A DNA stretch of 64,000 nt from an uncultured Chloroflexia bacterium (GCA_963833225.1 CAWHXD010000007.1:224001-288000); one strand, 5' to 3'. Shown: positions 8,433 to 63,831, counted from the first letter of the stretch. Notes: generated by a model not told the origin, from the sequence alone. Translations and numbers: made by a program.

Positions 8433-8511
8433 CGGGTCACCATCTTGCGCGGAGTGTCGCAGCAGGGTCCTTCACCCGTCCACCCGCGGGTCGTGCACTA
8501 TGCTGCGGCCG

Positions 8512-10342: not shown

Positions 10343-10782
10343 GTGGTTGCTCCTCCCGGGCTCGCGATGTGGCAGTGCTGGTGCGGGCCCGGCCCGGGAG
10401 ATGCGCGTTGGCGGTCGCGGCGGGGAGTCAGCCGGGGCCTCCGGGCTTGTTGGCACGCGCTCGGAGTCCCGGGGTCGGGGCGCACTGGTGTCGTCTGGCC
10501 AGCATACCGCCGCTCGCGATTGCGGCTGAGGAAGGCTGTTCGTCCGCTCGCGGCGTGTCGCTGGCGGTGCCATCCAACCTGTCACAATGGGCGGCGAGAC
10601 TCGGCGTGGCGAGACGGGAGCGATGGGGGCGCCCGGATCGCAACCGGGTCCCAGGGGCAACCGGCCCCGCCTGAGCGACGTGCGGCCCTCTGCCAGGGTG
10701 CTGTCGTCGGGGGGCGAGGTGCGGCCGCTCGTGGGGCCCGGTCGGTGCGCCCGCCGGCGGACACATGGAGGCAGCCCACCGC

Positions 10783-18296: not shown

Positions 18297-18330
18297 CGCG
18301 TTTCCCTTCCGCCTTTCACATCTTTCGACC

Positions 18331-18356
18331 TTTGTCGACCAACAAACTGAACATTA
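18331..18356 (-). promoter_or_regulatory. Putative -10 box (TAATGT) and palindromic operator TTTGT-N6-ACAAA upstream of the ABC operon
   Basis: AT-rich patch. ACATTA at 18351-18356 on the plus strand; TTTGTCGACCAACAAA at 18331-18346. Confidence 0.5.
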
Positions 18357-18412
18357 GCACACGGGTGGGGTGCCTGTCGCGGATGGCACGGCTCATGGCG
18401 GAGTAGCGGTCG

Positions 18413-18949
18413 TCAAGCTCTCGCCGGCACGCGCACGACCAGGGCGCTGTCGATGTCGATCGCGGTGGTGAGCCGCCACACGTTCTCGAATCCCTCCCGG
18501 GCCAGCTGACCGTCCGCGAGCGCGCGGCCGAGATCGGCCAGGTGCGAGCGGACGGCGTCGTCCGGGACCGCGAGCCGCCCCGGGCGTGCCCGGTTCCTCG
18601 CCAGCACCAGGTCCGCCGGCAGGTCGAGCGCGATCGCGATCGCCGGCAGGCCGGCGATCGAGGCCTCGCGGAGCAGGGCCGCCCGGGCGCGGGCCGTCAC
18701 GTTGGTCGCGTCGACCACGGTCAGGCGGCGGTCATGGAGTCGCCTGCGCAGGGCTCCGTGGAGGGCCGCGAACGCGGGCCGCGTCGCGCGCTGATCGGTG
18801 GGGTCGCCGCTCACCAGCCCGCGGTAGGCGTCCGACGAGAGGATCTCGTCCGCACCGAAATGCTGCGCCGCGAACGTGGACTTGCCGGCCCCCGCGGCGC
18901 CCACGAGCACGACCAGGCAGGGATCAGGGAGTCGGATCTCGGAGGGCAT
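18413..18949 (-). CDS. AAA_33 P-loop kinase (resembles the kinase domain of bacterial Pnkp)
   Basis: LVVLVGAAGAGKSTFA, LSSDAYR, LTVVDATNV. Confidence 0.85.
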   Translation of the reverse strand: MPSEIRLPDPCLVVLVGAAGAGKSTFAAQHFGADEILSSDAYRGLVSGDPTDQRATRPAFAALHGALRRRLHDRRLTVVDATNVTARARAALLREASIAGLPAIAIALDLPADLVLARNRARPGRLAVPDDAVRSHLADLGRALADGQLAREGFENVWRLTTAIDIDSALVVRVPARA

Positions 18950-40570: not shown

Positions 40571-41969
40571 ATGGACGATGTCATCGCATCGGTTACCCCA
40601 GCGCTGGAAGCGAAGATCGGTGCGTACCGGCGCGAGCACCGGCTGCCCGGGATCGTGGCCGGGATCGCGGACCGCGACGGCCTGCGGTGGTGGCACGCGA
40701 CCGGCTTCGCGGACCTCCAGACCGGGCGACGCGCCGACCAGCGGACGCTGTACCGCGTCGCGTCGATCACCAAGACCGTCACCGCGACCGCCGTGCTGCA
40801 GCTGCGCGACGAGGGGCGGGTCCGGCTGGACGACCCGGCCGTGCGGTACCTGCCCGAGCTGGAGCAGGTCGCGGATCCGCATGGGCTCATCGAGGACGTC
40901 ACCATCCGCCGCCTGCTGATGCACACCTCCGGCCTGCAGGGCGAGCTGCCGTGGCAGGACCTGGACCGCTTCTGGCTCTATCGCCCCGAGGAGATCCCGG
41001 GGGTCCTGCACCTGGGCGCCGTCCGCACGCCGCCCGAGGCCGGCCACAAGTACAGCAACTTCGCGTTCGAGCTCCTGGGCCTGCTCGTGGAGCGGGTCGC
41101 CGGTCGCGGGTTCGCGGAGCACGTCCGGGCGTCGATCCTCGATCCGCTGGGGATGACGGACACGACCTGGGACCCGGACCCGGACCAGGCCGCCCGCAAG
41201 GCCACCGGCTACGACGCCCGCGACCACGCCGACATCCCGCCGCCGGCCCGCGACATGGACTCCGGCCTGTTCCTCGCCGACGGCGGGCTGTGGAGCACGG
41301 CGGAAGACCTGGGTCGATGGCTTGGCCAGCAGCTTCGCGCGGACCCTGCGCTGGGGCGCGGTCGAGGGCGATGTCCTGGCCGGTCGCACCCTGACCGAGA
41401 TGCACCGTCCCACGTGGATCACGGATCCGGCGTGGAAGGAGGCCCAGGGCCTGTGCTGGTACGGGACTCGCACCGGCGAGACGATCGTGGTGGGGCACTC
41501 GGGCTCACTCTGGGGCTTCCAGACCAACATCTCGTTCTCGGCGTCGGGCAAGGTGGGCGCGGTCGTGATGCTCAACGGCATCGGCAGTGCGGCGAAGCTG
41601 TCGCGCCAGCTCATCGAGACGCTCCTGCCGGCCCTCAGGGAGGCCGAGGATCGCGCCGAGGTGGCGCCGTTCGCCCCGGTGCCGGCCGCGTTCGGGGAGC
41701 TGCTCGGCACCTACCGGGATCCGGAGTTCGGCGAGGATGTCCGGGTCGAGTGGCGGGACGGCAAGCTGGCGATGGTCAGCGCGGACGCCGACGAGCCACC
41801 GCGGGAGCTCCGCCCGACCGAGGACCCGCTGGTGTTCACGATCTCGGGCGGCCGTCCGGCGGAGGAGGCGATGGCCTTCTCGCGCGGCGCCGACGGGAGG
41901 ATCGACCGGGCCAACGCTGCCGGCTACCCGATGATGCGCGTGGACCTGGTTCGCGAGCCCACCTGGTAG
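40571..41969 (+). CDS. Serine hydrolase, beta-lactamase family (frameshift near 41360)
   Basis: SITK (SxxK), LLMHTSGL, YSN, GGLWSTAEDL, then GHSGSLWGF in the second frame. Confidence 0.88.
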
Positions 41970-49804: not shown

Positions 49805-52304
49805 CACCGGCATCGTAGCCGGTGAGGGCGACGCGGGCGGGGATCTCCGGGGTCGTCGCCGCGGAGGTCCGTGGAGTCCCCGTGGTCCGGACCCGCAGCC
49901 CGTCCGGGCGCAGCCCCACCTCCACCGTCCCGTCGAGGTCCGTGCGGAGGATGCGCGCCCCGATGTCGCGCAGCCGTGCAAGGGTCGACGCGGCCGGGTG
50001 TCCGTAGTCGTTGTCCGCCCCCACCGAGACCAGCGCGAGCGTCGGCCGCAGGGCCGCGAGGAGCGGCGCACTGGTGGCGGTGGCGCTGCCATGGTGTGCA
50101 ACCTTGAGGACGTCGATGGCCGGGAGGCCGCGGGCGAGCAGCGCCGGATCCACGTCGTCCTCGGCGTCGCCCGTGAGCAGGAATCGGCGGCCGTTGGCCT
50201 CGCCGAGGAGGACGATCGAGGTGTCGTTGATCCCCCGTCCCGTGGCGGCCGGTTCCGTGGGCACGCCGGGGTCCGGCCAGAGCACCGTCAGCGAGATCTC
50301 GTCGAGGCGCAGCCGGGCACCCGTGGCCAGCGTCGCCCTCGGCGGGCCGTGCTCGAGGGCCGCATCCCAGGCCGCCCACCCTGGTCCCGGTCCGTGCATG
50401 CCGGGTTCGAACACCTGCCCAACCCGGTACCGCTCCAGCACCCGCACCAGGCCCGCGACGTGATCCTCGTGGGGATGGGTCAGCACGATGATGTCGATCC
50501 GCCGGTCCCAGGGCGGGACGCGCTGGTCCAGGGCCACCAGGAGGCGGTCCGGGTCCGGCCCGCCATCGACCAGCATGCGCGCACCGCCCCGGGTCTCGAC
50601 CAGGATCGCGTCGCCCTGTCCCACGTCGAGCATCACGAGCCGCGTGGACCGCCCGGCGACATCGGCCATCGCGAGCGTCGACAGCGCCACGACAACCGCC
50701 GCGACGCCAAGCGCCAGCCGGCTGCCGCGCGAGGCGGGGATCGGCAGGCGACCAGCCGTCGCACCGGTCCCGGCCCGGGGCGACGGTGCCTGTTGACCGG
50801 GTCGTCGCTGCCCCGGCCGCCGGCGCCGACGGGCGCGCGAAGCCCGGAGCCGCCGGATCATGCCGGGCGCCCCCAGGACCAGCACCGCGGCCATGAGCGC
50901 CGCGGCCGGCGCCGCCTCCGGCGGGATCGGCACGGCCGCGAACGGCACCCCGGCTCCCAGCCGCACGAACGCGACGATGAGGTGGAGCAGCAGCCAGGCC
51001 GGCAGGCCGAGCATCGTTGCCAGCCCGTCCGGCAGCCCGGCCATGGACAGGGCGCCGCCCCCCATCGCGACCACGCCCGCGCCCATCGCCGCCGGCACGA
51101 GCGGGACGACCGCAAGGTTGACCACCGGCGCCACCAGCGACAGGCGCCCGAACGTGACCAGCACGTCCGGCAGCGTCGCCGCCTGGGCGGCCAGCGAGAT
51201 CCCGAGCCCCTCCGCCAGCCAGCCCGGGATCCGCCCGCCACCCAACCCCGCAAACCAGCGGCCCAGCGGCGTTCCCCAGGCCAGGAGCCCGGCGGTGGCG
51301 ACCACGGACAGCCGGAATCCGGCATCGCCGATCATCGTCGGGTCGACCACCAGCATCGAGAACGCGGCGAGGGCCAGGGCCGCCGGCGCGCGTGCCGACC
51401 GCCCCGACTCCCGGGCCAGCAGGACCACCGCCGCCATCACGGCCGCCCGGACCACCGACGGCGAGGCGCCCGCGGCGAGCACATACGCGCCGATCGTGCC
51501 CCCGACCACGATCGCGACCGCGCGGCGCGACCGACCGCGCATCAGGGCGCCCACGAGACCCGCCACGATGGCGATGTTCCAGCCCGAGATGGCGACCACG
51601 TGGCTGACGCCCGCCGTCGCGAAGTCGGCAGCCAGCGCCCGATCCACGCGCTCCCGGAGGCCCACCAGGATCCCCGCGGCCAGGCCCGCCTCCGGCTCCG
51701 GGAGCGAGACCTGCAGCGCGTCACCCGCCGCGTCCCGGGCCGGCTGGAGCGACAGGCCGCTCGCCCGTTCAACGATCCCGAGCGATCGTGCGTCCAGGCT
51801 GCCCGCGGCGCCCGTGCGGCGCAGGTACTCGCCGTAGCCGTCGTCCTCGGGCGGCGGTCGCAGACGGCCGTCGACCTCCACCGTGTCACCCGCGTGGACC
51901 GCCGGGAACGATGGCAGTGTTGCCGCAACACGCACCGGCCCCGGTTCCACCTGCAGCGCGAGGCGGGCGACCTGGCTCCCGTCCCGCGGTGAGCCCACGG
52001 AGTCCACGACCGCCGTCCAGGGCCCCGGCGTGGCCGGCAGCGGCGGGACGGGGGGAGCCGGCGGACCCAGCAGCAGCCGGAGCGCGACCAGGACCGCCCC
52101 GATGCCCGCCGGCGTCAAGGGAGCGACAGCCAGCGCCCGGGGAACCGCCAGCCCGATCGACACCGCCAGCAGCCCCACGACCAGGACGCCGGCCATCGGC
52201 CCGCCCGCGTACGCGACCGCTGCCGACACGGCGGCCCCGATCGCGAGCCACGCGCTGCGCGGGAGCGCCGGGAGCGCCGGGAGCGCTGGCGCGGCCGGCT
52301 TCAC
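49329..52304 (-). CDS. comEC: Competence protein ComEC/Rec2 (true 3' end probably near 49850)
   Basis: AGVSHVVAISGWN, SPSVVRAAVM, GFRLS, LDVGQGDA, LTHPHEDH, LLTGDAE, LKVAHHGS, NDYGHP, RTDLDG. Confidence 0.93.
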   Translation of the reverse strand: MKPAAPALPALPALPRSAWLAIGAAVSAAVAYAGGPMAGVLVVGLLAVSIGLAVPRALAVAPLTPAGIGAVLVALRLLLGPPAPPVPPLPATPGPWTAVVDSVGSPRDGSQVARLALQVEPGPVRVAATLPSFPAVHAGDTVEVDGRLRPPPEDDGYGEYLRRTGAAGSLDARSLGIVERASGLSLQPARDAAGDALQVSLPEPEAGLAAGILVGLRERVDRALAADFATAGVSHVVAISGWNIAIVAGLVGALMRGRSRRAVAIVVGGTIGAYVLAAGASPSVVRAAVMAAVVLLARESGRSARAPAALALAAFSMLVVDPTMIGDAGFRLSVVATAGLLAWGTPLGRWFAGLGGGRIPGWLAEGLGISLAAQAATLPDVLVTFGRLSLVAPVVNLAVVPLVPAAMGAGVVAMGGGALSMAGLPDGLATMLGLPAWLLLHLIVAFVRLGAGVPFAAVPIPPEAAPAAALMAAVLVLGAPGMIRRLRASRARRRRRPGQRRPGQQAPSPRAGTGATAGRLPIPASRGSRLALGVAAVVVALSTLAMADVAGRSTRLVMLDVGQGDAILVETRGGARMLVDGGPDPDRLLVALDQRVPPWDRRIDIIVLTHPHEDHVAGLVRVLERYRVGQVFEPGMHGPGPGWAAWDAALEHGPPRATLATGARLRLDEISLTVLWPDPGVPTEPAATGRGINDTSIVLLGEANGRRFLLTGDAEDDVDPALLARGLPAIDVLKVAHHGSATATSAPLLAALRPTLALVSVGADNDYGHPAASTLARLRDIGARILRTDLDGTVEVGLRPDGLRVRTTGTPRTSAATTPEIPARVALTGYDAGDDHSDTPRGRPPAVVPGPARLVAPARVRGRGRRRLARPGDRRQRDAVRRARGRGGGAAPRRGQDPGRAGGWRPPRRGVRRVAGGAGLPEARAARAGSSREPIRRRGGHAAPGRGAARGADHRLRGQACWPADRAHGGPVRLVAPALPVGTGRAGAGRG

Positions 52305-52999
52305 GGGCCGATCGTGACGAGCGGCCGGAGCTTGTCCATCGTCGCGGCGCTCACCACCTTGCGGGCGAGCAGGTCATCGACGCTCGTGAACGGTTGCTCC
52401 TCCCGCGCCGCGATGATCTTGGCCGCCGTCACGGGCCCGATCCCGGGCAGCGTGTCCAGCGCCTCCGCTGAAGCCCGGTTGAGATCGATCGGACCCGCGC
52501 CGCCGGCCACCCCGCCGCCCTGGTCCGTGCCAGGAGCCGCTGGATCCTCTCCGCGAACGGGCACGCGGATCTTCTGGCCATCCGTGATCGACGCCGCGAG
52601 ATTGAGCTGCCGGTCCACCAGGCCCGCGTCGACCGTCGCCGCGTACCCGCCTGCCGCGTCGATCGCGTCGGCGACGCGGGCGCCCGCCGGCAGCTGGTAC
52701 ACGCCGGGGCGAGTGACCGCCCCACCGACATCCACCACGAGCATGACCGCAGGTGCCGGACTTGCCGAGCGCGTCGCGCCGAGGTCTGCCGGCATCGCGC
52801 CCAACCCATTCGCGCCGTCCACGCTGATCACCGGCTCCTCCCCGCCAGCGACCAGGACGGCCCCGACGCCGACCAGGACCGCGAGAACGGCCGCGACGAC
52901 GGCGGGCCACGGCAGGCCACCAGGCGTCGCTTGGTGATCGGGCGGGGCTTCGGGCTCAGAGGCCTCGAGGACGCGCCACGGCGCGCTGCTTGGCTCCAC
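52301..52999 (-). CDS. comEA: Competence protein ComEA (TM, SLBB, HhH)
   Basis: VVDVGGAVTRPGVYQL, RVADAIDAAGG, IDLNRASAEALDTLPGIGP. Probable GTG start at 52999 after GGGAG. Confidence 0.92.
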   Translation of the reverse strand: MEPSSAPWRVLEASEPEAPPDHQATPGGLPWPAVVAAVLAVLVGVGAVLVAGGEEPVISVDGANGLGAMPADLGATRSASPAPAVMLVVDVGGAVTRPGVYQLPAGARVADAIDAAGGYAATVDAGLVDRQLNLAASITDGQKIRVPVRGEDPAAPGTDQGGGVAGGAGPIDLNRASAEALDTLPGIGPVTAAKIIAAREEQPFTSVDDLLARKVVSAATMDKLRPLVTIGP

Positions 53000-53082
53000 G
53001 GGTCGGGTCGCTCCCCGGCGGGATCCGGCGGCGGGCGTGGGTGTGGATGCGGTTGCGAGCACAGGTGGAGCGCCCGTGCGGG

Positions 53083-53095
53083 AGGGGGCACGTCC
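53083..53095 (+). repeat. attL core AGGGGGCACGTCC
   Basis: Exact match to 61917-61929; lies 15 nt upstream of the recombinase ATG. Confidence 0.88.
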
Positions 53096-53110
53096 ACATA
53101 TAATGCGGGT

Positions 53111-54355
53111 ATGAGTACCGCCGTCGCCTACCTTCGCCGGAGCCGGGTGGACACCCGCCGCCCTGGCACCGTCTCCCACGCCGAGCAGAAGCCGCCGTCA
53201 CCGCTCTGGCCGCCCAGCATGGCGATCACGATCTAGATGTTCTCGAGGACTGGGGGCGATCGGGCCGAGACGAGAAGCTCGCCAAGCGCGACGCGTTCGC
53301 CGATCTCCGGGCCCGCGTCAAGCGTGGCGACGTGACCGCCGTCTACGCCTACGACGTGTCGCGGCTCGGGCGCTCCGTCGTGACCCTCCACCAGCTGATG
53401 ACCGAGTGCAAGGCCGCCGGCATCCCCATCCGCTGCGCGTCGGGCTACTCCCCCGACATCAGCACCGCCGAGGGGCGGCTGGTGTTCGCCAACCTCGCCG
53501 CGATGTTCCAGTACCTCGCCGAGAGCGTGCAGGAGCGGGCCGCGCGGCGCGTCGAGGAGCGGCGCGAGAAGGGGGAGCTCATGGGCCCCGCGCCCTTCGG
53601 CTACCGGCTCGTGGACGGCAAGCATGTCCCCAACCCGGCCGAGGACCTCGCCACCGTGATCGAAACGTGGCGCGCGTCCGAGAGTGTCGCGGAGGCGTGC
53701 CGGCGCCTGAAGATGCCGGGGTGCGGACCCGGTCAGGCGTCCAGTGGCTACCATCGACGCTGTACGCGATCCTCGAGCACGAGGGGCTGCGCGTCCGCAC
53801 CCTGCAACGTGGACGGCCCGTGAAACGCACCTACCGGTTCTCGCGGCTCCTGCGATGCCCGCACGACGACTCCGCGCTCGTGGGCAACGGCAAGAACGGG
53901 CTCGTGCAGTACGAGTGTCGCGCGTCGCGCCTGACCGGCGATCACCCGTACCCACGCAGCATCTCCGAGCGGCTGATCCTGCCGTGGGCGGAGACTGAAG
54001 TGGACAGGCTGCGGCTGCCGGTGGACACGGTACAGACCGCGGTGGACAACGCCGAGCGCCGGGCCATCCTCTCCGGGCGCTTGGACCGCGCCAACGAGCT
54101 CTACATCGCCGGGAGCATCCCCAAGGACCGATACGAGCGGGAGGCCGCCGCGGTGGCCGCGGAGCTCGACGGCTTGGACGCCGAGGACGAGATGATCGCG
54201 GTCCCGCCGATCGGGCCGCACGATTGGGACACTTGGGCGCCCGCGGACCTCAACCGGACACTCCGCGCCCTCTGGTCCCGCGTCGAGCTCGGGGCCGATA
54301 TGCGGCCTGTCCGTGCGGAGTGGCGCAGCCGGCCCTGTGGAGCCCGGCGTCGTGA
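53111..54355 (+). CDS. Large serine recombinase/integrase (apparent frameshifts near 53190, 53710, 54325)
   Basis: AYLRRS (catalytic Ser), EDWGRSG, YDVSRLGRS, PAPFGY, zinc-ribbon-like LLRCPHD..YECR, coiled coil. TATAAT lies 6 nt before the ATG. Confidence 0.9.
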
Positions 54356-54675
54356 TCCTGCGACCGCTCGCCGTCGTGGGTTCGGCTGCCCGGTGCCCCG
54401 AGCCCACCTGTGGAGCCTGGATTGGCCGCGTCCGACGCGACCGGCGCGTCACCGAGCGTCACGGGCAGGAACCAACGCCCTATGTCGCCGAGACCTTGAT
54501 CCTCTCGACGCTCTGGCGGCCCGTCAACGGCGCTTGGCGCCTCGGCCGCCACCATGGGATGGACGAGCGGACGGTTACCTTCAGGCCGCTACCGATCGTG
54601 TGTCCCAAGTGCCACCACAAGGCCGCCGCACCGCCGCTGGTTTCGCGATTGCAGCCGAGGCCGCACACGGCGTAG
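54352..54675 (+). CDS. Hypothetical zinc-finger protein
   Basis: GTG overlaps the inferred integrase stop (GTGA); CPEPTC ... CPKC. Confidence 0.55.
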   Translation: MILRPLAVVGSAARCPEPTCGAWIGRVRRDRRVTERHGQEPTPYVAETLILSTLWRPVNGAWRLGRHHGMDERTVTFRPLPIVCPKCHHKAAAPPLVSRLQPRPHTA

Positions 54676-54772
54676 TATCTGGCTACCAACCCCAAGCGCG
54701 AGCCGACAGCGCGGCTCCACCGCTCTGCTCAACCGACAACGACGGGCAGGGTCAACGTGGAGTCGCGTTTCG

Positions 54773-54948
54773 ATGTTGTCGGAGAAGAACCCGCGCAAGG
54801 TTCGCGCCGGTCAGGCTGCGATGCGCAAGCGCTGGGGGCCGCAGCGAGTGCTGGCCTGGACCAGCTCGATCCCGTCACCCGTGAAGTGATCCTGTCCATC
54901 GTCGAGGCTCGGCGCAACGCCGCCGCTGCCGACGCCGGGCAGCAGTAA
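54773..54948 (+). CDS. Small basic hypothetical protein (one apparent frameshift)
   Basis: SD GGAG; MLSEKNPRKVRAGQAAMRKRWGPQRVL / LDQLDPVTREVILSIVEARRNAAAADAGQQ*. Confidence 0.5.
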
Positions 54949-55125
54949 GGGCCGCCGTCATGCGAGCAACCGGCAGCCCTCCGTCCAAGCCTACCCCCGA
55001 CGAGTGGGAGCGGGCTAATCACGCCGCCTACATGGTCGGCGTCATCCTCCGATACCGGCACCCGGCTGGGTCGTCGCGGAGCGGTTCCGCGAACTTGAGG
55101 CCGCGGGAGAGGCCCACAACGACGC

Positions 55126-56142
55126 ATGGTTCGGGACCGCGACGATGGTCCGCGGCTGGGACCAGACGTGAGCCTCACCGAGCCCGAGTGGGTCCGGGAT
55201 GGGCCTACGATCATCCCTGAGGCCGTCACACGGCCCCGGCTGGCCGTCACCGGCTCGCACCGCCTCTCGGTCCTGCGCTGGCAGGAGCTGATGACCTCGC
55301 CGCCCGAGCCGCCGCCGGTCCTCCGGGCCGGTATCCCGGAGGTGGGCGTCACTGTCCTTGCCGGGAGCCCGAAGGTGGGTAAGACACTCTGGAGCTCCCA
55401 GACGGCGCTGGAGATCCGCAAGCCCGTCCTGCTCGTCATCGAGGAGGGCAGCATGAGCGGGATCACCTACCGGCTGGCCAGACAGGCCGCCGCCCTCGAC
55501 ATTGCCGCGCCACCCATCGCGGTTCTGCACCGTCAGCGGATCCGCCTGGACAACCGGAGCAGCGTGGACGCCCTCCGGGCCATCGTGGCGGCCGAGCGGC
55601 CCGCGCTCGTGGTCCTGGACCCGCTCAACCGGCTCCACGGGGCCGATGAGAACCGGCCCACGCAGATGACCCCGGTCATGGACGCCATGGCCGGCATCGC
55701 CTACGACTACGGGGTCGCGGTCCTGGCGATCCACCACCTGTCCAAGCCCTCCGCCGAGCGGCGCGGGGACATCTGGGACCGCTACCGCGGCGCGTCCTCG
55801 ATCCGCTCCGGCACGGACGCCAACCTCGCGCTCGACGGGTCCGGAGACCGCGTGCGGCTGAGGGGTGAATTCCGGGATGCAGAGCCGCTGTCCGAGTACC
55901 TCGAGCTCGACCGCAACACGCTGCTATTCGGGCCGGGCGACGCCCCGGAGGCGCCGACCAAGGTGGACGCCCTCGCGCTGCGCCTGTTCGTCCAGGAGCG
56001 GACGCAGGTCACGGCGGCACAGGTCATGGCCGAGTACGCCGTGTCGAAGATGACCGCCCTTCGAGCCCTTCGAGCCCTCGGCTGTGACGAGTTCCCCGGT
56101 GTCCGCGGGACCCTGACGTTCACCCTCGGAGGTGGCTCGTGA
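55126..56142 (+). CDS. AAA_25 / RepA-type SF4 helicase with C-terminal HTH-like segment
   Basis: Walker A LAGSPKVGKT, Walker B LVVLDP, GADEN, IHHLSK, YRGASSI. Confidence 0.88.
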   Translation: MVRDRDDGPRLGPDVSLTEPEWVRDGPTIIPEAVTRPRLAVTGSHRLSVLRWQELMTSPPEPPPVLRAGIPEVGVTVLAGSPKVGKTLWSSQTALEIRKPVLLVIEEGSMSGITYRLARQAAALDIAAPPIAVLHRQRIRLDNRSSVDALRAIVAAERPALVVLDPLNRLHGADENRPTQMTPVMDAMAGIAYDYGVAVLAIHHLSKPSAERRGDIWDRYRGASSIRSGTDANLALDGSGDRVRLRGEFRDAEPLSEYLELDRNTLLFGPGDAPEAPTKVDALALRLFVQERTQVTAAQVMAEYAVSKMTALRALRALGCDEFPGVRGTLTFTLGGGS

Positions 56143-56146
56143 GCCT

Positions 56147-56300
56147 CCACCGTCCACCGTCTAACGACCGTATACCCACCGTCCATTGGACGCTGTCCAG
56201 GGACTGTCCCACCGTATCGTCACACGCCCCCTTTAGGGGGTGGGCTATGCGGTGGACGGTGGACGCCCGGAAGGGACAGTCCCAGAGGGACGACCGTATA
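56147..56300. repeat. Origin-like region with iterons and palindromes
   Basis: CCACCGT x4 plus an inverted copy, CGACCGTATA x2, inverted GGGACTGTCCC/GGGACAGTCCC, and central CCCCCTTTAGGGGG; directly after the helicase. Confidence 0.65.
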
Positions 56301-56421
56301 GCGCGCCCGGCGAAGCCATGGGGGCTTTGGCTAACTCCGCCACCCCCGCCACCCTCCACCCGCGCCTTAGGCGACTCGCTGTGAGCCTGTCCCTTTCCCG
56401 ACCCGTTTCCCAGAGGTTGAC

Positions 56422-56730
56422 ATGACCCCACCCATCCGCCCGCCCTCGCACCTGTCCAAGCCGTCCAAGGCGCTTTACATCGATGTCATGGGCAGCTACC
56501 TGCTCGAGCCCCACCACGTGGCCCTGCTCGTCAAGGCGCTGGAGGCCCGCGACCGTGCCGACCAGGCACGCGCCGAGATTGGCCGCGGACCACTCATGGT
56601 CACCTCCCGGCTCGGCGAACAGAAGCCCCACCCGCTGCTCACCGTCGAGCGGGACGCCCGCGCCCAGTTCGGCACGCTGATGAAGCAACTCGGCCTGGAC
56701 ATCGACGGCCCGCCGTCCAACCGGAGATAG
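56422..56730 (+). CDS. Phage terminase small subunit, P27 family
   Basis: PPSHLSK N-terminus; GPLMVTSRLGEQKPHPLL; FGTLMKQLGL C-terminus, typical of P27 TerS. Confidence 0.82.
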   Translation: MTPPIRPPSHLSKPSKALYIDVMGSYLLEPHHVALLVKALEARDRADQARAEIGRGPLMVTSRLGEQKPHPLLTVERDARAQFGTLMKQLGLDIDGPPSNRR

Positions 56731-56732
56731 CC

Positions 56733-56942
56733 ATGCCCTCCCCCAAGCGCCGCCCCAAGCTGCACCGCCCGCCCCCTGCCGATCTGTCCGGCCTCGCCTA
56801 CTGGGAACTCGTGGAACTCGCCAAGCGTGGCGAGATCACCTGGTCCGACATCTCGGCCGAGACCCACCGTCAGGTCCTCGCGTCCAACGGCGGCATCGAC
56901 CCCTACGCCCACCTCCGCATCGACAGGGAGCCCCTCGCATGA
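56733..56942 (+). CDS. Hypothetical protein
   Basis: SD GGAG; tightly packed between terS and the next ORF (ATGA overlap). Confidence 0.6.
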   Translation: MPSPKRRPKLHRPPPADLSGLAYWELVELAKRGEITWSDISAETHRQVLASNGGIDPYAHLRIDREPLA

Positions 56943-57180
56943 ACGCCACCGCCGCCGAAATCGCCGAGGCAATCGCCAACCTGGCCGCCGCCGCCCACCA
57001 GCGGCTCGACCGCGGCGACCTGTTCGCCCTGCTGGACGATCCGGCCGCGGAGAAGCGGGTTGACGTGGACGGAGACACCTACCGGCTCACGGCCGGCGAC
57101 GTGACCCTGTGGAAGGCCCTACGGCCGCCGTCGCCGCCGCGGTCGAGATCCTGGCCGCCAAGCGCGACAAGCTGAACTAG
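56939..57180 (+). CDS. Hypothetical protein (probable frameshift near 57120)
   Basis: SD GGGAG; MNATAAEIAEAIANLAAAAHQRLDRGDLFALLDD... Confidence 0.55.
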
Positions 57181-57184
57181 CCCG

Positions 57185-57214
57185 TTGCCGGAACGTGCGC
57201 CCTAGCGGTAACAT
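57185..57214 (+). promoter_or_regulatory. Sigma70-like promoter upstream of the capsid gene
   Basis: TTGCCG (57185-57190), 18-nt spacer, TAACAT (57209-57214). Confidence 0.55.
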
Positions 57215-57337
57215 GTTCTCGCCGCCCAGAGGGTGGCAGTCAACGGGGCAGCGCGCCCGGTGGGCCCAGAGGGCCCGTCAGGAGCAGCGCCCGCCGCCAG
57301 AGGACCGCGCCAGAGGCGAGGCCCACGAGGCAGCGGA

Positions 57338-58709
57338 ATGGCCGACCCGGCCGCCTATCTGCTGGCGATCTCGGCGCCCCTTGGAGACACCGTGACCCCG
57401 ACCAACTTCGACTACACCGCCGAGCAGCTTCGTGCGCTCGATCATGCCATCGAGGGCGCGCGTACCGTCGTCCGGCTCGATGAGATGCGAGACGACGGCA
57501 AGGAGTTGACCTTCAACCAGTCGACCGACCGCGCCGAAGCATCCGGGCGTGGAACGACGCGGCCGACATCGTGCCCAGCCTCGCCCGGTGGGAGAGCATC
57601 ACTACCGACAGCGAGGCCTTCACCCGCTCCCTGGCCACCCTCCGCATGCACCTGCAAATGGGCAAGGGCGCAGCCCTCAGGGCCGAGATGCGTGCCAACG
57701 GCGCGGCCTACCTATTCGATGGAACGCTGGACCGCCCTGGCAGCGGCAATCCCGAAGCCATCACGATGAACGACCAGATCCGCGAGCTCTTGCAGTCCGG
57801 CGAGCGGCAGCACGACTTCGAGTACCTCGAGACCGACGCCATCCGCGAAATCCGCCGTCCTTCGCCGCCGGCGAGCAGAGGGCCATTGCCAACTTCTCGG
57901 ACGCCTCATCGCTGCATGTCAACGACTTCCGGCGACAGGTGGCGATGTACGCCCGCACGGCCAGTCCGTGGCTCGGACTGGCAACCGTCGTGACCTCCGA
58001 CGCGGGCCGGCCTCTGATCGTGCCCAAGCTCACGGGTGACGGCACCGTCTACACCCCGGGTGAGGGGACTGCCGTGTCCGAGAGCTCGGCCGTGCTGGAC
58101 TCCGTCACCGTGACCCCGACCGGGTTCAAGGCGTTGACGTACATCAGCCGTGAGAGCTGGGACGATGAGGAGGTGGACCTCGGCCGCCTGCTTGCCGCCT
58201 CGCACGCGCGGGCCATCGGCCTGGCGTTCGGCTCGACCGCGACCACGGCCGTCCTGGCTGGGATCAGAACGGCGGCACCGCGTCCGGCCTCGGTGGCGAC
58301 GGTACGGCCGTCGTGCCGTTCCTGGATACGAGGACTTGATCGACCTCCAGATGGGTCGAGCAGCCCCGTACCGCGAGGGCGGTGCCTACGTGATGGCCAA
58401 CGGCGCCATCACCAAGGTCAAGAAGTTCAAGGACGGACAGGGGTCCTACCTCTGGCCGACCGGCGCCCTGCCCATCGGTGGCATGGCGTATGAGGACCCG
58501 AACCTGGCGCTCCCGCCTCGGCCACCAAGAGTGTGTGCTTCGGGGATTGGGGCGCCGCCCTGATCATCAAGGCCACGCCGATCCGGGTCGAGGTGTCGCG
58601 GGACTTCCTGTTCAACACCGACCAGGTGGCCATCAAGACCGTCCAGCGCATCGCCCTCGCGGTGCAGGACCCGGCCGCTGCCGCGTACCTCGTGAGCGCC
58701 GATACGTAG
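57338..58709 (+). CDS. HK97-fold major capsid protein with N-terminal extension (several frameshifts)
   Basis: Joined frames give LATVVTSDAGRPLIVPK, EGTAVSES, TYISRESWDDEEVDL, YEDLIDL, AYVMAN, KFKDGQGSYLW, CFGDW, VEVSRDFLFNTDQVAIK. Confidence 0.85.
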
Positions 58710-58945
58710 ATCCCCCGGACCGCCAGTACCCCTCCGGCCTGTCCACCTCAATCGCCCGCACGGGTTCCGCGTCGTCGCTCCACCTCGAAGGCGCGGCGCT
58801 CTGGCAGCAGCTTCGGGTCCGGCCGGAGCGTGCGGGCTAGGCCGTCGCTGACCGGCGGCGCAACCCCCCGTGGGGAACGCAGGACCTTCGAACGAGGTAA
58901 AGTCACGTACGGTCATGACAACGATGACGAACGACCAACCCGACA

Positions 58946-59770
58946 ATGCGTGATCGGGACCGCGACAAAGTCGCGCTCCGGGGCTCCATCGTTGACTTCG
59001 GCGATCCGCCGGTTATCGAAGTGGCCCTGTCGACCGAGATCCGTCGTTTACCGCACATGAGCCTGGTCCGCATCGTGGACGCATGGCACGAGCTGTATCA
59101 GGATCGCTTCCCGGAGGTTCAGGAACAGGCTCGCTACGCGCCCCCGCCGCTAAACGCGGAGCGCGGGCAGAGGATTTGCATGATGTCCCAACTTCCCACG
59201 CCAAGGCTGTGGTTCCTCAATCAGGCTCGAACCGACCTCATTCAGCTCCAGAACGACTGGTTTGGGCGCAACTGGCGCAAGGTTGAGGGCGCCGAGGAGT
59301 ATCCACGATACGGCGTCCTCCGCGAGGCGTTCGCCCACGACCTTGGGCTACTGCGGGACTTCACCGAGCGCAATGCGCTGGGATCTCTTGTGCCCACTAC
59401 CTGTGAGATCACGTACATCAACCACATCGAACTGGCACCAGACTTGGGTGTTGAACAGGTCCTCGGCGTGCTATCGCGGGATGGTGGAGGCTTCCTCCCC
59501 AAGATGGAGGCAGGTAGCCTGTCGGCTCGCTTCGCAATTACGGACGGCGAACACGCGCGAGGTACGCTTGCCGTCAACGCCTCGACCGCCACCCGGGCTG
59601 GCGACAATGCCAGCATTCTCGCGTTGCAGGTGACGGCTCGAGGGAACGCCACCACAGGCGATGTTGCTGGCGTGCTGCGATTTTTGGATCTCGGTCACGA
59701 ATGGGTTGTGCGTGCATTTGCGGAGTTGACGACCGAGCAGATGCACCAGCGCTGGGGGAGGACGCAATGA
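58946..59770 (+). CDS. TIGR04255-like protein
   Basis: FGDPPVIEVAL, PRLWFLN, LIQLQNDWF..NWR, YPRY, CEITYINHI, FAELTTEQMHQRW. Recognised from memory of the family pattern. Confidence 0.75.
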   Translation: MRDRDRDKVALRGSIVDFGDPPVIEVALSTEIRRLPHMSLVRIVDAWHELYQDRFPEVQEQARYAPPPLNAERGQRICMMSQLPTPRLWFLNQARTDLIQLQNDWFGRNWRKVEGAEEYPRYGVLREAFAHDLGLLRDFTERNALGSLVPTTCEITYINHIELAPDLGVEQVLGVLSRDGGGFLPKMEAGSLSARFAITDGEHARGTLAVNASTATRAGDNASILALQVTARGNATTGDVAGVLRFLDLGHEWVVRAFAELTTEQMHQRWGRTQ

Positions 59771-60284
59771 CGGCTCTGCTGCCAGAGACACGGTACCTAT
59801 CGGACCACCTGGTGAATGGCCAGTTCGAGGACTTTGCCGCCACGGGGGCCGCAACGACTGGGAGTCCGGCGTCTTTCACCTATCGCCTGGGGACAGCAGA
59901 TCTTGCTCCTTACATCGCACGCCAACGAGCTGACGAGTTCGTGTCGCGCGCGATCGAGCGACTGGAGTTGATGCGCCCGAACTGGGACGGAGACAACGGG
60001 CGGGCGATCTCGCCTCGAGCCCTTGCATACGCGGCCGGGCTGGTTCCCGATCTTGCTGCCCAGGGGGTGATGATCCCAAGCCTCGTTCCGGTGTCGGATG
60101 GCGGGATCTCGATTGAGTGGCACCGCGGGGGCCGCCAAAGCTGACCCTCTACGTCCCTCCGCGGTTCCCGGACGAGGACGCCGTCGCCTACTACCTCGAC
60201 GAGCGCACTGGCAACGAGTGGGAGGAAGCGCTGCCAGCCAACGAGTCGCGCGTTGAGGCGCACTTGGCGCAGTTCCTGGAGTAG
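59767..60284 (+). CDS. Hypothetical protein (frameshift near 60140)
   Basis: ATGA-coupled to the upstream gene. LELMRPNWDGDNGRAISP...VPVSDGGISIEWH continues as LTLYVPP...AHLAQFLE*. Confidence 0.7.
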
Positions 60285-60343
60285 CCCGATTTGGAAACGT
60301 CGACGCTGACTGGCAACGCTTCCGTGAGCCAGGGGACCGAGGT

Positions 60344-60754
60344 TTGACTGAGGCGCGGGTAGAGGCTGATGCCATCCTTCTGCGCAAGATCACTCCCGAT
60401 TGGGTGGTGCCCGACAACGAAGGTGGGTTTCGTGTGTCGAGTGCGGCGTACAGAGGCAATCGGACTGCCTCGAATTTGAGGGCGTTCTCGGTGTTCGTCG
60501 AGGCCCGGCTGACAGCGTCCGGGGCTGACGCCTCCGTACTCTTGGACGCTGATCAAGGCCTCTGGAGCGTCGTGAGCATCGACATCGGGACCGTGCGCGA
60601 AGTCGACCTTGAAGCGTGGTACCGCCCCGAAGGGGTGGACCCCATCCTAATTGAAGCCCACGCAGAGGTTGAAGGATCCATCAGCACGAAGAAGGCGTCG
60701 ACACTGGCTCGCAAGTCGCGACAGGTGATTTGGCGAGGGTCGTCGTCAGCGTGA
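60344..60754 (+). CDS. Hypothetical protein, possible ADP-ribosyltransferase-fold toxin
   Basis: Pattern LLRKI...SSAAY...FSVF...HAEV, resembling the R / S / H strands of small ART-like toxins. Confidence 0.6.
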   Translation: MTEARVEADAILLRKITPDWVVPDNEGGFRVSSAAYRGNRTASNLRAFSVFVEARLTASGADASVLLDADQGLWSVVSIDIGTVREVDLEAWYRPEGVDPILIEAHAEVEGSISTKKASTLARKSRQVIWRGSSSA

Positions 60755-60806
60755 GTGCTGGGTGCCATATCCCGCCCGCTTGCCAGTTCGCGATTGTCCT
60801 CCGGGC

Positions 60807-61055
60807 CTACGAGGGCGTTCCACCCTCGCGGATCAGCCGAAGGCACCGAGCCAGTTCCCGGATGACCCCCAGCTCGGTCGGGGCAATGGCCGTCCACTCC
60901 TGCGACCGAGCGCCCGCCTGAGCCCACTCTCGCGGATCGAAAGCGTACTGCTCCCACACATTCCGCCCCTCGTCGTAGGACGGCCGGCCCACGAACCAGC
61001 CCGGAGGCTTCGCTTCGTAGAGCTCGCTCCAGGCGGCCTCTAGGTCGGTGGGCAT
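60807..61055 (-). CDS. Hypothetical protein
   Basis: TACCAT 7 nt before the ATG; Trp-rich 82-aa ORF. Confidence 0.65.
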   Translation of the reverse strand: MPTDLEAAWSELYEAKPPGWFVGRPSYDEGRNVWEQYAFDPREWAQAGARSQEWTAIAPTELGVIRELARCLRLIREGGTPS

Positions 61056-61100
61056 GGGGCCGATGGTACGGCTATGGCGGCCTTGCGGATCAGTGGTCTG

Positions 61101-61772
61101 CTACTCGCCTGTCCTTTGGGCCATCGAGACCGCGAGCGCGAGGACCGCGACGACTGCACCTGCCACCAGTATCCACAGTCCATACCCCACCGAGGCGCGG
61201 GTGCTCTCACTGCTGGCATCTATGAGGCGGTTCGACATATTGACTAGGTCGTACGCGGACAGCGCGACGAGCACCAGGGCGCCTAGCAGTGCCAGCGGAC
61301 GGCGACGGCGGAAGCCGGTCGCCAACGGAAACGCAAGAACGGCAACCAGCACCGCAAGCCAAAGAGTCAGGACGCCGTCGCCGTCCGTGCCGGCGATAGA
61401 GAAACTGCCAAGACCGCTCTGCGCGCTGGCCCACGGCAGGACACTGCCGACTGCAGCCACAACCGCAGCACCAGCAGCCACATAGCCAAGTTGCGTCGAG
61501 GCTTGGCGAGCGAGCGTGGCGGCTACCGGATCGACCGGGACGGTCCGTATGCGGCCCCAGCTCAGGATCGCGTCCCCACCCAGCCTGTCGAGGACGGCTT
61601 CGCCAATGTTGTCGAGCGGCACCCGAATTTCGTCGCCACTCTTTGTGGACCGGATGATGACCACGCCCGGCTCGAGACGCAGCACCTCGCCACGAGTGCC
61701 GGTCGCTGGTGTCGGAACCTTGTACTTGATGCGAACACGTTGACCCGTCCGTAACTCCGGAAGGCCTGTCAT
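61101..61772 (-). CDS. Membrane protein with N-terminal SH3/KOW-like beta domain
   Basis: SD AAGGAG; GQRVRIKY..RGEVL; four C-terminal hydrophobic helices (LPW, GYGLWILV). Confidence 0.7.
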   Translation of the reverse strand: MTGLPELRTGQRVRIKYKVPTPATGTRGEVLRLEPGVVIIRSTKSGDEIRVPLDNIGEAVLDRLGGDAILSWGRIRTVPVDPVAATLARQASTQLGYVAAGAAVVAAVGSVLPWASAQSGLGSFSIAGTDGDGVLTLWLAVLVAVLAFPLATGFRRRRPLALLGALVLVALSAYDLVNMSNRLIDASSESTRASVGYGLWILVAGAVVAVLALAVSMAQRTGE

Positions 61773-61916
61773 CCCATGCTCCTTTGACACCTCGGTCTTC
61801 GCGACCGGCTCGACGGGTGGTTGCCTGTGAGGCCAGCCTACGCGGATCGCGGCGATGCCGAAGCGTTCGGGCGGGGTCTCCTTCCATGCGCCCGATGCGT
61901 GACCCGCAAAGTTGAC

Positions 61917-61929
61917 AGGGGGCACGTCC
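61917..61929 (+). repeat. attR core AGGGGGCACGTCC
   Basis: Exact match to 53083-53095. Its first base completes TTGACA (61912-61917). Confidence 0.88.
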
Positions 61930-62052
61930 TTCCGCACGGGTGTCCGGTTCAAACCCTATCCGCCGCCACTTATCTGCCACTTACGCGGAGGGTGGTACTG
62001 GGCGCTCCCGCGGGAGTCAGGCTAGGATCGGCCCCCGACACCGAGGAGCCGA

Positions 62053-62679
62053 ATGGTCGAGGATCCCTTCCCGCGCGAGCGCGTTGCCGCCACCCTGCGC
62101 CGGATGCCCGCGTACCTGAAGCTCGCCTGGCGTCTGGGCCGTGATCCGCTGCTCAGCCGCGTGCGGCGGACGGCCATCGTCGCGGCGGCCGGCTACCTCG
62201 CCTCGCCCATCGACCTCGTCCCCGGGGTCATCCCGCTCCTTGGGCAGCTCGACGACATCGCGGTCGTGCTGGCCACCCTGCGGTTCGCGCTCGCGGGGCT
62301 CGACGCGGAGCGACGCCACATGCATCTCGAGGCTGTGGGGCTTGGTGACGACAACCTGAACGAGGACCTGCGGACGGTGGCGGTGACGAGCGCCTGGCTG
62401 GTCCGCGCCGGCGCGAGGACCACGGGCCGGGCCGTGGTGCGGGGTGGGAGGCTGGCCGCGCGCGGCGCGAAGGTGGCCGGCAGGGCGTCGATCAGCCTTG
62501 CCTCGGCAACCCGGCGGGCGACGTCGAGGGCGACGCCGGTGGTGAGGGATGCGGCCGGGCGGGGAGTGGGAGCCGCGAAAGGGCTGGCGTCGCACCGCGC
62601 GAGCCGTGCCCTCGAGGACGAGCAGCTCGCCGTCGACGTGGACGATGCCCCCGGCGCGGAGGAGCCGCCGACGGCGTAG
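62053..62679 (+). CDS. YkvA/DUF1232 family protein
   Basis: YLASPIDLVPGVIPLLGQLDD; SD GAGGAG. Confidence 0.9.
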   Translation: MVEDPFPRERVAATLRRMPAYLKLAWRLGRDPLLSRVRRTAIVAAAGYLASPIDLVPGVIPLLGQLDDIAVVLATLRFALAGLDAERRHMHLEAVGLGDDNLNEDLRTVAVTSAWLVRAGARTTGRAVVRGGRLAARGAKVAGRASISLASATRRATSRATPVVRDAAGRGVGAAKGLASHRASRALEDEQLAVDVDDAPGAEEPPTA

Positions 62680-62712
62680 GGCCGAACATCGGCTGCCTCC
62701 TCGAGGGCAACG

Positions 62713-62961
62713 CTACGCTGCCCGGCCCTCCAGGCGCGCCGCGGCTGTGCACGCGCCATCGGACAGCATGTGCGCGACGCTCGCGACCCGACGCAGCGCG
62801 CCGGCGAACGCCCGCCGCAGCGGCCCGGGGCCCGACGGACGGCCGACGGGAACCATCGGCGCTGACCCCGCATCGAAGATCCGGTTGAGCGCCGCGAGCT
62901 CGGCTTCCTGTCGGCGGTCGTGGATGATGTCCTGGGCGAGCATCGCGTAGATCTGCCACAT
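62713..62961 (-). CDS. Small hypothetical protein
   Basis: SD GGAGGAG; MWQIYAMLAQDIIHDRRQEAELAA... Confidence 0.65.
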   Translation of the reverse strand: MWQIYAMLAQDIIHDRRQEAELAALNRIFDAGSAPMVPVGRPSGPGPLRRAFAGALRRVASVAHMLSDGACTAAARLEGRAA

Positions 62962-62977
62962 GCCTGGAGCTCCTCCG

Positions 62978-63100
62978 TCAGTGTCCGAATGAGTGGTTGT
63001 GATCGGTGTGCTCGAAGCCGTCACGGCTCTCTGCCGCGCCGGCAAGCGCGGCGACGACGAGCACCGCGAACAGGGCGATGACCATGATCAGGGCGTCCAT
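62978..63100 (-). CDS. 40-aa membrane peptide (not in the ORF track)
   Basis: SD GGAGGT; MDALIMVIALFAVLVVAALAGAAESRDGFEHTDHNHSFGH*. Confidence 0.65.
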   Translation of the reverse strand: MDALIMVIALFAVLVVAALAGAAESRDGFEHTDHNHSFGH

Positions 63101-63126
63101 CGGGGGACCTCCGTGGGGCGGGTCAG

Positions 63127-63205
63127 GTAACCGGCACAAAGGACTTCAACAGTTACGAACGATAGCGGCTTGCAAGTAACCTGTCAAGTGGTATAACGTG
63201 GTTAC
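63127..63205. promoter_or_regulatory. Two GTAAC-N20-GTTAC inverted-repeat boxes
   Basis: 63127-63156 and 63176-63205, each 30 bp, in a divergent intergenic region. Confidence 0.7.
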
Positions 63206-63213
63206 CGACAGTT

Positions 63214-63831
63214 ATGCCCATCGACATTCCCACCACCCCGCACGCCCACACTGCCGACCTCGAGGCATGCCTCGATCTGATCAACACGGTCGAGCTGACC
63301 GACGGGGTTCCCGACGACCACATCCCCACCGCCGAGGACGCGATCGCCTTCCTCGCGGAGCGCGACCTGGCCCACGAGGCCGACCTGCGCCGCCAGCAGC
63401 GTCGCGAGGGCGACGCGTGGCTGGACCGGGTCCGGGAGACCCGTTCCGCCCTGCGTGAGCTGTGGGATTCGCAGGTCGAGGGTCGCGCACCCGCATCGGG
63501 CGCCCTCGTCACACTCAACGCCCTGCTGGACCGCGCGCCACGAGTCGAGCTGCGCGCCACCCTGGCCGGCGTCGAGATCACGCACGACCACCGGCCCGAC
63601 GATCCCACGGGCGAGGCGCTCGCTCGCACCGCCATGCCGCTCGTGGAGGCGATCGCGACCGGCCAGACGGACCGGTTCCGGATCTGCGCCAACGACGGCT
63701 GCCGCTGGGTGTTCGAGGATTCCTCGCGCGCGGGCCGCCGCCGATGGTGCGACATGACCACCTGCGGCAACCGCGCGAAGGTCCGGCGGTTCCGCTCGCG
63801 GCAGCGCGAGGGCTCGTCAGCGCCCGGCTGA
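63214..63831 (+). CDS. ABATE-domain / CGNR zinc-finger regulator
   Basis: CLDLINT; RICANDGCRWVFEDSSRAGRRRWCDMTTCGNRAKVRRFR. Confidence 0.93.
   Translation: MPIDIPTTPHAHTADLEACLDLINTVELTDGVPDDHIPTAEDAIAFLAERDLAHEADLRRQQRREGDAWLDRVRETRSALRELWDSQVEGRAPASGALVTLNALLDRAPRVELRATLAGVEITHDHRPDDPTGEALARTAMPLVEAIATGQTDRFRICANDGCRWVFEDSSRAGRRRWCDMTTCGNRAKVRRFRSRQREGSSAPG

Follow-up and report, generated by a model that had tools for sequence, protein, structure and literature searches.

The clostridial transposons Tn4451 and Tn4453 reportedly form, on their circular intermediate, a promoter for the recombinase TnpX, a finding ascribed to work by Lyras and Rood from 2000. In Listeria, the comK prophage is an element inserted in a competence gene, and phage-inducible chromosomal islands (PICIs) and capsid-forming satellites are small elements carrying integrase and replication genes with terminase or capsid genes, and neither tail nor lysis genes. 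Here we describe an 8.8-kb island next to the competence gene comEA in an uncultured Chloroflexia bacterium, found in a 64-kb stretch of DNA (GCA_963833225.1, CAWHXD010000007.1:224001-288000; the whole stretch is hereafter called the window). Its ends, when joined, bring a -35 hexamer from one side and a -10 hexamer from the other in front of the integrase gene. As in Tn4451/Tn4453, the recombinase is a serine recombinase with its gene at the end of the element; unlike those clostridial transposons, this is a phage-satellite-like island of a high-GC, Chloroflexia-type lineage, with a site-specific target (a hairpin loop), an mRNA that is probably leaderless and a spacer of 15 nt, and it is known here from sequence alone. 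With the PICIs and capsid-forming satellites it shares its size and its set of integrase, replication ATPase, small terminase and capsid, a likeness read from the genes.

Circle-dependent expression of an integrase gene has been shown experimentally for the integrative and conjugative elements (ICEs) ICEclc and ICEKp1, in which promoters at the far end, Pcirc and P3'end respectively, drive int only after the ends have been joined at attP (PMC13023037, in the excerpt cited). There, as proposed here, integration changes which promoter serves int; in that excerpt, however, both are ICEs with a tyrosine recombinase that sit in tRNA genes, and their far end holds a whole promoter, followed by a long leader, whereas the far end of the island would bring a -35 only and the crossover lies inside the spacer. 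In a model for the Listeria A118-family integrases an outer att motif is shifted by 5 bp between attP and attB (PMC3783163, in the portion cited). As in that portion of the model, attP and attB of the island are short and pseudo-palindromic around a central dinucleotide, with a CCCG/CGGG motif lying further out in attP; unlike it, the shift is 3-4 bp (counted by eye) and not 5, the enzyme is shorter (~410 aa), and the attB arms are the stem of a host hairpin that covaries between species. Pneumococcal prophage attB sites include one between a promoter and a start codon and another in ssbB (bioRxiv 10.1101/2024.08.13.607808, in the section cited); the island resembles these sites, as they are given in that section, and the Listeria case in lying in or before a DNA-uptake gene, and differs from them in that its target is the loop of a comEA-comEC leader hairpin in an uncultured lineage, where competence would presumably be affected. 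Junction promoters and competence-gene insertions are thus both already known, and no principle is changed by the present case.

Ends, cores and empty sites of the island

Two identical copies of a 13-bp core, AGGGGGCACGTCC, lie at 53083-53095 and 61917-61929. No third copy is present in the 64-kb window even when one mismatch is allowed (0.31 expected; 3 of 100 shuffles reach two), nor in the whole 3.89-Mb assembly (G000; 20 contigs, 86% marker completeness, 3% contamination). The boundaries were located by searching window positions 51500-63500 against 41 genomes, namely 40 relatives and G000 itself. In the two closest relatives, G008 and G013, with about 80% DNA identity, the left- and right-flank matches overlap by precisely the 13-bp core, and the predicted attB is found letter for letter. 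Six further genomes (G014, G004, G006, G024, G011 and G005) have a right-flank match that starts exactly with the right core (in G004, one base before it), with 12-27 nt separating the left-flank from the right-flank match. Because the flank matches in the empty-site relatives meet at the core, the island is placed at 53096-61929; its G+C content is 67.8%, against 72.5% and 71.4% in the flanks.

The four junctions (attP, attB, attL and attR) were built by coordinates in a script. The left end, 53073-53113, reads CCCGTGCGG-G-AGGGGGCACGTCC-ACATATAATGCGGGT-ATG and the right end, 61902-61940, reads ACCCGCA-AAGTTGAC-AGGGGGCACGTCC-TT-CCGCACGGG. Joined, they give an attP with perfect 7-bp inverted arms, ACCCGCA/TGCGGGT, each 8 nt off the core, and an attB with perfect 9-bp arms, CCCGTGCGG/CCGCACGGG, 1 and 2 nt off the core. 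The island and its att sites are therefore real: the initial annotation, made from the sequence of the window, had held that attP and attB could be reconstructed and that the 7-bp arms of attP stand symmetrically 8 nt from the core, and both points are borne out, the former by the two cores and the empty sites in relatives; empty-site genomes with different boundaries, which it had named as refuting evidence, are not found among the eight relatives. The features of the two ends are as follows (positions in the window; strand where one applies).

53073..53081: B arm (CCCGTGCGG), forming the left side of the stem of the host hairpin; G008 and G013 have the same sequence in their empty sites
53083..53095: left core copy (attL), with the probable crossover CA at 53089-53090 (from attB symmetry and the attP palindrome of the G067 island)
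53096..53110, plus: P' arm of attP, holding the -10 TATAAT (53099-53104) and the inverted-repeat arm TGCGGGT (53104-53110)
53111..54355, plus: serine integrase gene, putative leaderless ATG at 53111 and stop at 54353-54355 (from the Resolvase domain, three-frame translation and homologue alignment)
61902..61916, plus: P arm of attP, holding the inverted-repeat arm ACCCGCA (61902-61908) and the -35 TTGACA (61912-61917), which shares its final A with the start of the core
61917..61929: right core copy (attR), from sequence; only two copies in window and assembly
61932..61940: B' arm (CCGCACGGG), forming the right side of the stem of the host hairpin, from sequence and empty sites

A related island of about 8.8 kb occupies the same comEA hairpin in G067. 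Its ends have only GCACTTCC in common, and its attP, centred at C|A with arms 6 nt apart, forms a near-perfect palindrome. The window attB, with 16 nt between its arms, is likewise centred between that C and A, and given this shared centre the crossover dinucleotide is most likely the CA at 53089-53090, in the centre of the hairpin loop. Both attP and attB are thus short, with imperfect dyad symmetry round a common central dinucleotide, and attL and attR are their hybrids. A compact serine integrase family (~410 aa) of an uncultured, high-GC lineage thereby gains an attP/attB pair that is mapped in full and has its empty sites in nature.

The integrase gene and its probable promoter

The integrase gene, whose start lies 15 nt in from the left end of the island, encodes a large serine recombinase of ~410 aa. 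Pfam assigns the Resolvase domain (PF00239, 5.3e-18) to 53191-53823, and the YLRRS of the integrase aligns with the invariant Y, R and S columns of its homologues (YxRxS motif), so that both the resolvase domain and the catalytic serine are present. Homologues are rare: 24 proteins of 398-545 aa were found at E <= 1e-5, all with the Resolvase and two also with the Recombinase domain, and those of 398-450 aa were used to align the N-terminus and the pieces of the gene. They begin M-(S/K)-T-(A/P)-V-A-Y-L-R-(R/K)-S, which matches the frame from the ATG at 53111 (MSTAVAYLRRS). The piece at 53712-54884 has no Pfam domain at E<=0.01 and aligns lengthwise, at 31-58% identity, with homologues among which P0002 and P0003 carry PF07508. 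The reading frame is not intact: it shifts by a single base at three places, near 53190, 53705 and 54325; the three in-frame pieces are 73%, 53% and 40% identical to the closest relative, the integrase of the G067 island, which carries Zn_ribbon_recom (PF13408) and, below the cut-off, PF07508. A search with the G067 integrase found no further copy above 43% identity among 401 family genomes, so that only two elements at this site can be compared; against genome contigs it found distant relatives only, and two scans of viral contigs gave no match.

Integrases of the same family directly adjoin an N-terminally cut SSB reading frame in G097, G379, G001, G220 and G364; in G097:C10 (L080) the SSB frame at 18459-18818 (plus) adjoins an integrase at 17228-18445 (minus). 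The G097 element is 15.4 kb long with the core TGGTAC, and its ends are set by empty sites in many genomes. Given these ends and the adjoining cut SSB frames, an ssb gene is a further target of the integrase family.

TATAAT occurs once in the window, counting both strands, and this single copy ends 6 nt before the ATG of the integrase gene with no Shine-Dalgarno (SD) sequence between them. We compared the start context of 33 homologues from genus, family and class searches: 16 have TAnnnT 5-8 nt (mostly 6-7) before the inferred start and no SD-like motif, an arrangement with a background of 0.55% of positions, and 12 have an SD-like motif in its place. Leaving out two unpublished genomes, G548 (L101, one of the 16) and G316 (L074), the count is 15 of 31. 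In G067, TAATAT lies 6 nt before the integrase ATG. The integrase is thus most likely made from a leaderless transcript starting at 53111, and the reading of TATAAT as a -10 with a leaderless start is well supported by this comparison.

In attP, TTGACA is followed by a 15-nt spacer, TATAAT (12 of 12 hexamer matches) and, after 6 nt, the ATG at 53111. The best arrangement in attL has 8 of 12 matches, 2 of 6 in the -35; attR and attB contain no -10-like hexamer, and no two-hexamer promoter was found in the integrated 9.6 kb. TTGACA itself occurs eight times in the window (128 kb counting both strands; 6.8 expected), one copy being that at 61912-61917. With the -35 at one end and the -10 at the other, on the same strand and facing the recombinase gene, the layout is that of a split promoter, and because the -35 position lies beyond the crossover, the sequence found there differs between attL and attP. 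To this point the initial annotation holds: it had placed a recombinase gene at the end of the element, which the Resolvase domain and homologue alignment identify as a serine recombinase; it had read TATAAT, 6 nt before the ATG, as giving a leaderless mRNA; and it had derived TTGACA(15)TATAAT from the joined ends.

The spacing was compared with the usage of the host by counting TTGACA-N-TAnnnT pairs over the whole assembly, for N from 10 to 25.

N = 15: 1 pair
N = 16: 5 pairs
N = 17: 24 pairs
N = 18: 15 pairs
N = 19: 3 pairs
All other N from 10 to 25: 0-3 pairs each

The host clearly uses TTGACA/TAnnnT promoters, and the peaks at N = 17 and 18 are a direct read-out of the promoter grammar of this lineage. 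A spacing of 15 nt is at background genome-wide, and the junction in the window is for this reason out of register for the host polymerase. The further claims, that circularisation creates a consensus promoter and that the integrase is strongly expressed from it, find no support in these counts; the accompanying caveat, that 15 nt falls below the optimal 17, was right in calling the spacer short and too mild in its consequence, as this spacing is outside host usage and not merely suboptimal.

Ends have been mapped for five elements: those of the window and G067, that on G427:C77 (by at least ten empty sites), that of G097 (by empty sites) and that of G332 (by a 14-bp repeat and a 13-of-15 inverted repeat). 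The best -35 scores (matches out of six) at 16-18 nt from the -10 are as follows.

Window: attP 1, attL 2 (at 15 nt: 6 against 2)
G067: attP 4, attL 1 (TTTACG at 18 nt)
G427:C77: attP 5, attL 2 (TAGACA at 18 nt)
G097: attP 3, attL at most 1 (attL has 3/6, TTGTGG, at 15 nt)
G332: attP 1, attL 1 (-35 position inside the shared core)

Against a background in which the best score over 16-18 nt is at least 4 at 7.2% of positions and at least 5 at 0.8%, attP beats attL in all four mapped elements that have their -35 position in the P arm, the window being scored at 15 nt. Since G067 and G427:C77 place a -35-like hexamer at 18 nt across their junctions and three other members with mapped ends (G097, G332 and G186, the last described below) do not, the split design recurs in the family without being universal, and the version in the window is out of register. 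G067 and G427:C77 are intact relatives, open to direct testing.

The element on G427:C77 (L087) spans 1501-11813 (10.3 kb) with the core AACTGGCACCA, and its joined ends read TAGACA-18 nt-TACAGT-7 nt-ATG, a better spacing than that of the split promoter in the window. An exact-repeat search had suggested 12-bp repeats in L080 and L092 as element ends; these were rejected, as empty sites put the ends elsewhere.

Directly observed are where the island ends, its empty site, the family to which the enzyme belongs, the hairpin, where the hexamers lie and which spacers the host uses; we infer where transcription starts, what the -35 does, which way the switch works and that comEA has lost its promoter, and propose the following. 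The ~410-aa serine recombinase of a phage-satellite-type island would have inserted that island at the CA in the middle of the comEA hairpin loop, and the integrase would be read as a leaderless mRNA from the TATAAT in the P' arm. In the chromosome the -35 position would be taken up by the GC-rich stem of the hairpin, and in the excised circle by the AT-rich P arm with its TTGACA. The result would be a self-limiting switch: the circle, formed after excision or entry, would complete the promoter so that integrase is made, and integration would split the promoter again and take expression down to a -10-only level. We give this explanation as a whole a probability of roughly 0.55. Its parts are of unequal strength: the split promoter is plausible as a design, and there is a roughly even chance that attP is the better promoter than attL in this lineage; strong expression here is doubtful and the odds that attP is a strong promoter in this copy are well short of even, and with a 15-nt spacer and frameshifts in integrase and capsid genes the switch is probably weak or dead in this copy. 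The locus would then be a sequence-level case in which an integrase promoter is complete on the circle alone, with a control for spacer length derived from the host itself.

Several observations weigh against this explanation. The spacer of the window departs from the host peaks at 17-18 nt, and at 16-18 nt its attP scores only 1/6; G332 has its -35 position in the shared core, with equal scores for attP and attL; the junction -35 of G097 reaches only 3/6; and a sixth element, in G186, has TTGACA-17-TAGAGT-7-ATG wholly in its near end. The AT-rich hexamers sit in integrase-binding arms, and because G067 and G332 mirror a -10-like motif in the other arm, part of the resemblance to a promoter may be recognition sequence. 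A -10-only promoter would accommodate much of this: TTGACA would belong to the integrase-binding P arm, leaderless transcription would be equally low from attL and attP, and regulation would come from integrase binding over its own promoter. We regard this as possible, though not as the favoured reading. The background frequency of 15-nt spacers in the host speaks for it, as do the AT-rich motifs mirrored in both attP arms of G067 and G332 and the contact of large serine recombinases with about 25 bp of each half-site (PMC3783163, in the portion cited). In addition, only two of the 16 leaderless homologues reach at least 4/6 at 16-18 nt when integrated (read by eye from 40-nt upstream stretches, not computed), so that -10-only promoters seem usual for the integrase gene. 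It fits less well with a perfect, same-strand TTGACA within a few nucleotides of the expected place, which is rare at eight copies in 128 kb, or with the 4/6 and 5/6 hexamers that the junctions of two independent relatives place at 18 nt; and as the inner 8 nt of the window attP arms agree at only 1/8 positions (read by eye), the arms are not simply a symmetric binding motif. That the hexamers are chance likenesses, with the integrase transcribed from elsewhere, by a promoter inside the island or by read-through, is very improbable. AT-rich stretches are few in high-GC genomes and att arms are often AT-rich, which would allow for such a coincidence; against it stand the unique TATAAT of the window, 6 nt before the start, the same arrangement in 16/33 homologues, the position of the integrase as first gene at the island end with a divergent host gene upstream, and the integrated 9.6 kb, in which no other promoter-like site was found.

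The frame changes bear on the proposed switch as well, since there are three in the integrase gene and at least one in the capsid gene, compared with one in ~14 kb of flanking chromosome. They could be assembly errors in an island that is intact and mobile and has its switch in use. Each integrase break looks like one base missing from a run of 2-3 G or C, the protein is otherwise well conserved and without in-frame stops, the 13-bp cores and both pairs of arms are perfect, and the assembly, incomplete and in 20 contigs as it is, has at least one frameshift in a conserved chromosomal gene. We nonetheless think this unlikely: at least four frame changes fall in the island and a single clear one, near 41358, in the ~14 kb of neighbouring chromosome, and the sequence context of two integrase breaks is not depleted genome-wide, which gives no sign of a systematic error at one motif and led us to reject that explanation. 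Because the frame changes concentrate in the island and the break context is not depleted, the island is read as decaying, with locally poor assembly as the alternative. The flanking genes comEC and comEA are each in a single frame against relatives (tblastn). The chromosomal frameshift lies in a conserved gene of ~507 aa, intact in G008 and G013 and here split over two frames at about 41353-41364; it is either real or an assembly error.

The host hairpin and comEA

The island separates the following host features.

52301..52999, minus: host comEA (SLBB and helix-hairpin-helix; Pfam HHH_3 and SLBB, single-frame tblastn to relatives), with a putative GTG start at 52999 and an SD-like CTCCCC (plus strand) at 53011-53016, from sequence and conservation
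61953..61983, minus: putative comEA promoter region, with TAGGGT at 61958-61953 and TAAGTG repeats 11 nt apart, on the plus strand CACTTA at 61967-61972 and 61978-61983 (invariant columns in the 12-genome alignment, motifs in other genera)
62053..62679, plus: host DUF1232 gene, right flank (Pfam DUF1232)

Eleven empty sites from the genus, aligned together with one on contig C12 of this assembly (twelve in all), fold as one 16-pair hairpin with the core in its loop. Ten of the 16 pairs show changes on both sides. In register 93% of cells pair, and 39-51% do so once the partner column is displaced by 1-3; the observed values were reached in none of 500 shuffles. Folded singly, the empty sites give about -30 to -38 kcal/mol (z -1.6 to -4.6). 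The initial annotation had called attB a strong palindrome; its perfect 9-bp arms agree with that description, and with a stem that covaries they are to be seen as a host feature, not one shaped by the integrase.

A 12-mer of the loop is present in 294 of the 401 family genomes, three unpublished ones included. Its context was followed in 17 single-match genomes and at three places in G152, of which 19 of 20 were readable: at ten it adjoins a comEA homologue and sits in the loop of a strong hairpin whose stem has another sequence, with none next to a DUF1232 gene; the other nine are chance matches elsewhere. In the sense of comEA the loop reads GGA(C/A)GUGCCCCC and is invariant (window 61953-61983 with 53030-53082; alignment A3). 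The order in this sense is two TAAG(T/C)G repeats 11 nt apart with an invariant TAnnnT, then the hairpin, then the start of comEA ~60-90 nt later, and this arrangement of repeats, TAnnnT and hairpin is seen in 22 genomes across several genera. A search of four empty-site loci against Rfam gave no family match and one chance match to a snoRNA (E 0.51), and wobble counts do not tell the RNA strand (8 G-U against 9 A-C cells, tallied manually).

The comEA leader hairpin may be an unrecorded cis-regulatory element of the competence operon. From the order of motifs it would lie close to the 5' end of the comEA mRNA, or right at it, and the island would part comEA-comEC from their promoter, the putative promoter region now being 8.8 kb from comEA. 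The palindrome of attB is in this way a conserved leader hairpin outside Rfam, which connects the control of natural competence, in a Chloroflexia-type group without genetics, with a mobile element. The small-integrase clade might even have made a two-sided switch of this site, in which one crossover both splits the integrase promoter, turning integrase down, and cuts the comEA-comEC operon from its promoter while halving the leader hairpin. Competence would be off while the island is integrated, protecting it from curing by transformation, and both would return on excision. A natural RNA hairpin would serve the enzyme well, its stem offering a symmetric site already fit for a dimer, and the enzyme would follow that stem as it covaries between species. 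We consider such a two-sided switch quite unlikely.

The attB of the G186 element (L092; G186:C22, reverse strand, ~1440-1500 and 11300-11330) is also hairpin-like, with 13-bp arms, CCGAAGCGGCGCC/GGCGCCGCTTCGG, flanking the crossover. The contig C12 mentioned above carries, at G000:C12:3000-7400 (L098), a second and empty comEC-comEA-hairpin-DUF1232 locus of 67-75% identity, probably DNA of a second species in the bin, in line with the contamination of 3%, or else a paralogous locus.

Other genes of the island and the comEA/DUF1232 interval

Beyond the integrase, the following genes were recognised in the island.

55126..56142, plus: AAA_25/primase-helicase-like replication ATPase (Pfam AAA_25, 1.3e-21; PHROG primase/helicase families)
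56422..56730, plus: small terminase subunit, P27 type (Pfam Terminase_4; phrog_83, phrog_1496)
57549..58563, plus: HK97-type major capsid gene in at least two reading frames (Pfam Phage_capsid; PHROG major head protein)
60807..61055, minus: open reading frame (ORF) of 82 aa, no assigned function, with repeated matches (query 9324-9574) in G015, G017, G001 and G020
61101..61772, minus: predicted membrane protein at the right end of the island (ORF without Pfam or PHROG match)

About half of the ORFs are unannotated, and no tail, lysis or large-terminase genes were found in the island with Pfam or PHROG; because these are absent, it looks like a phage satellite or a much reduced prophage. In its content (integrase, replication and packaging/capsid genes, without tail or lysis genes) and in its length, within about 8-15 kb, it agrees with what is expected of a PICI-like element. 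The island at the same site in G067 has a different gene content. The Phage_capsid profile is divided between two ORFs of the window, with positions 7-113 in that at 57549-58493 and positions 148-192 in that at 58150-58563.

The 82-aa ORF, for which Pfam, PHROG and Atlas gave no lead, occurs in multiple copies in relatives: G015 has at least seven matches within an insert of 24.5 kb that separates comEA from the DUF1232 gene, and several further ones lie in G017, G001 and G020. The length of the comEA/DUF1232 interval differs among species, with extra DNA of ~24.5 kb in G015 (C1:121295-145923), ~3.3 kb in G001 (C2:731203-734661), ~2.7 kb in G002 (C156:16434-19251) and ~1.5 kb in G007 (C65:56913-58607). 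None of these four enlarged intervals contains a match to the integrase family, of which G015, G002 and G007 have none anywhere and G001 a single one elsewhere; this site is a possible hotspot of other elements.

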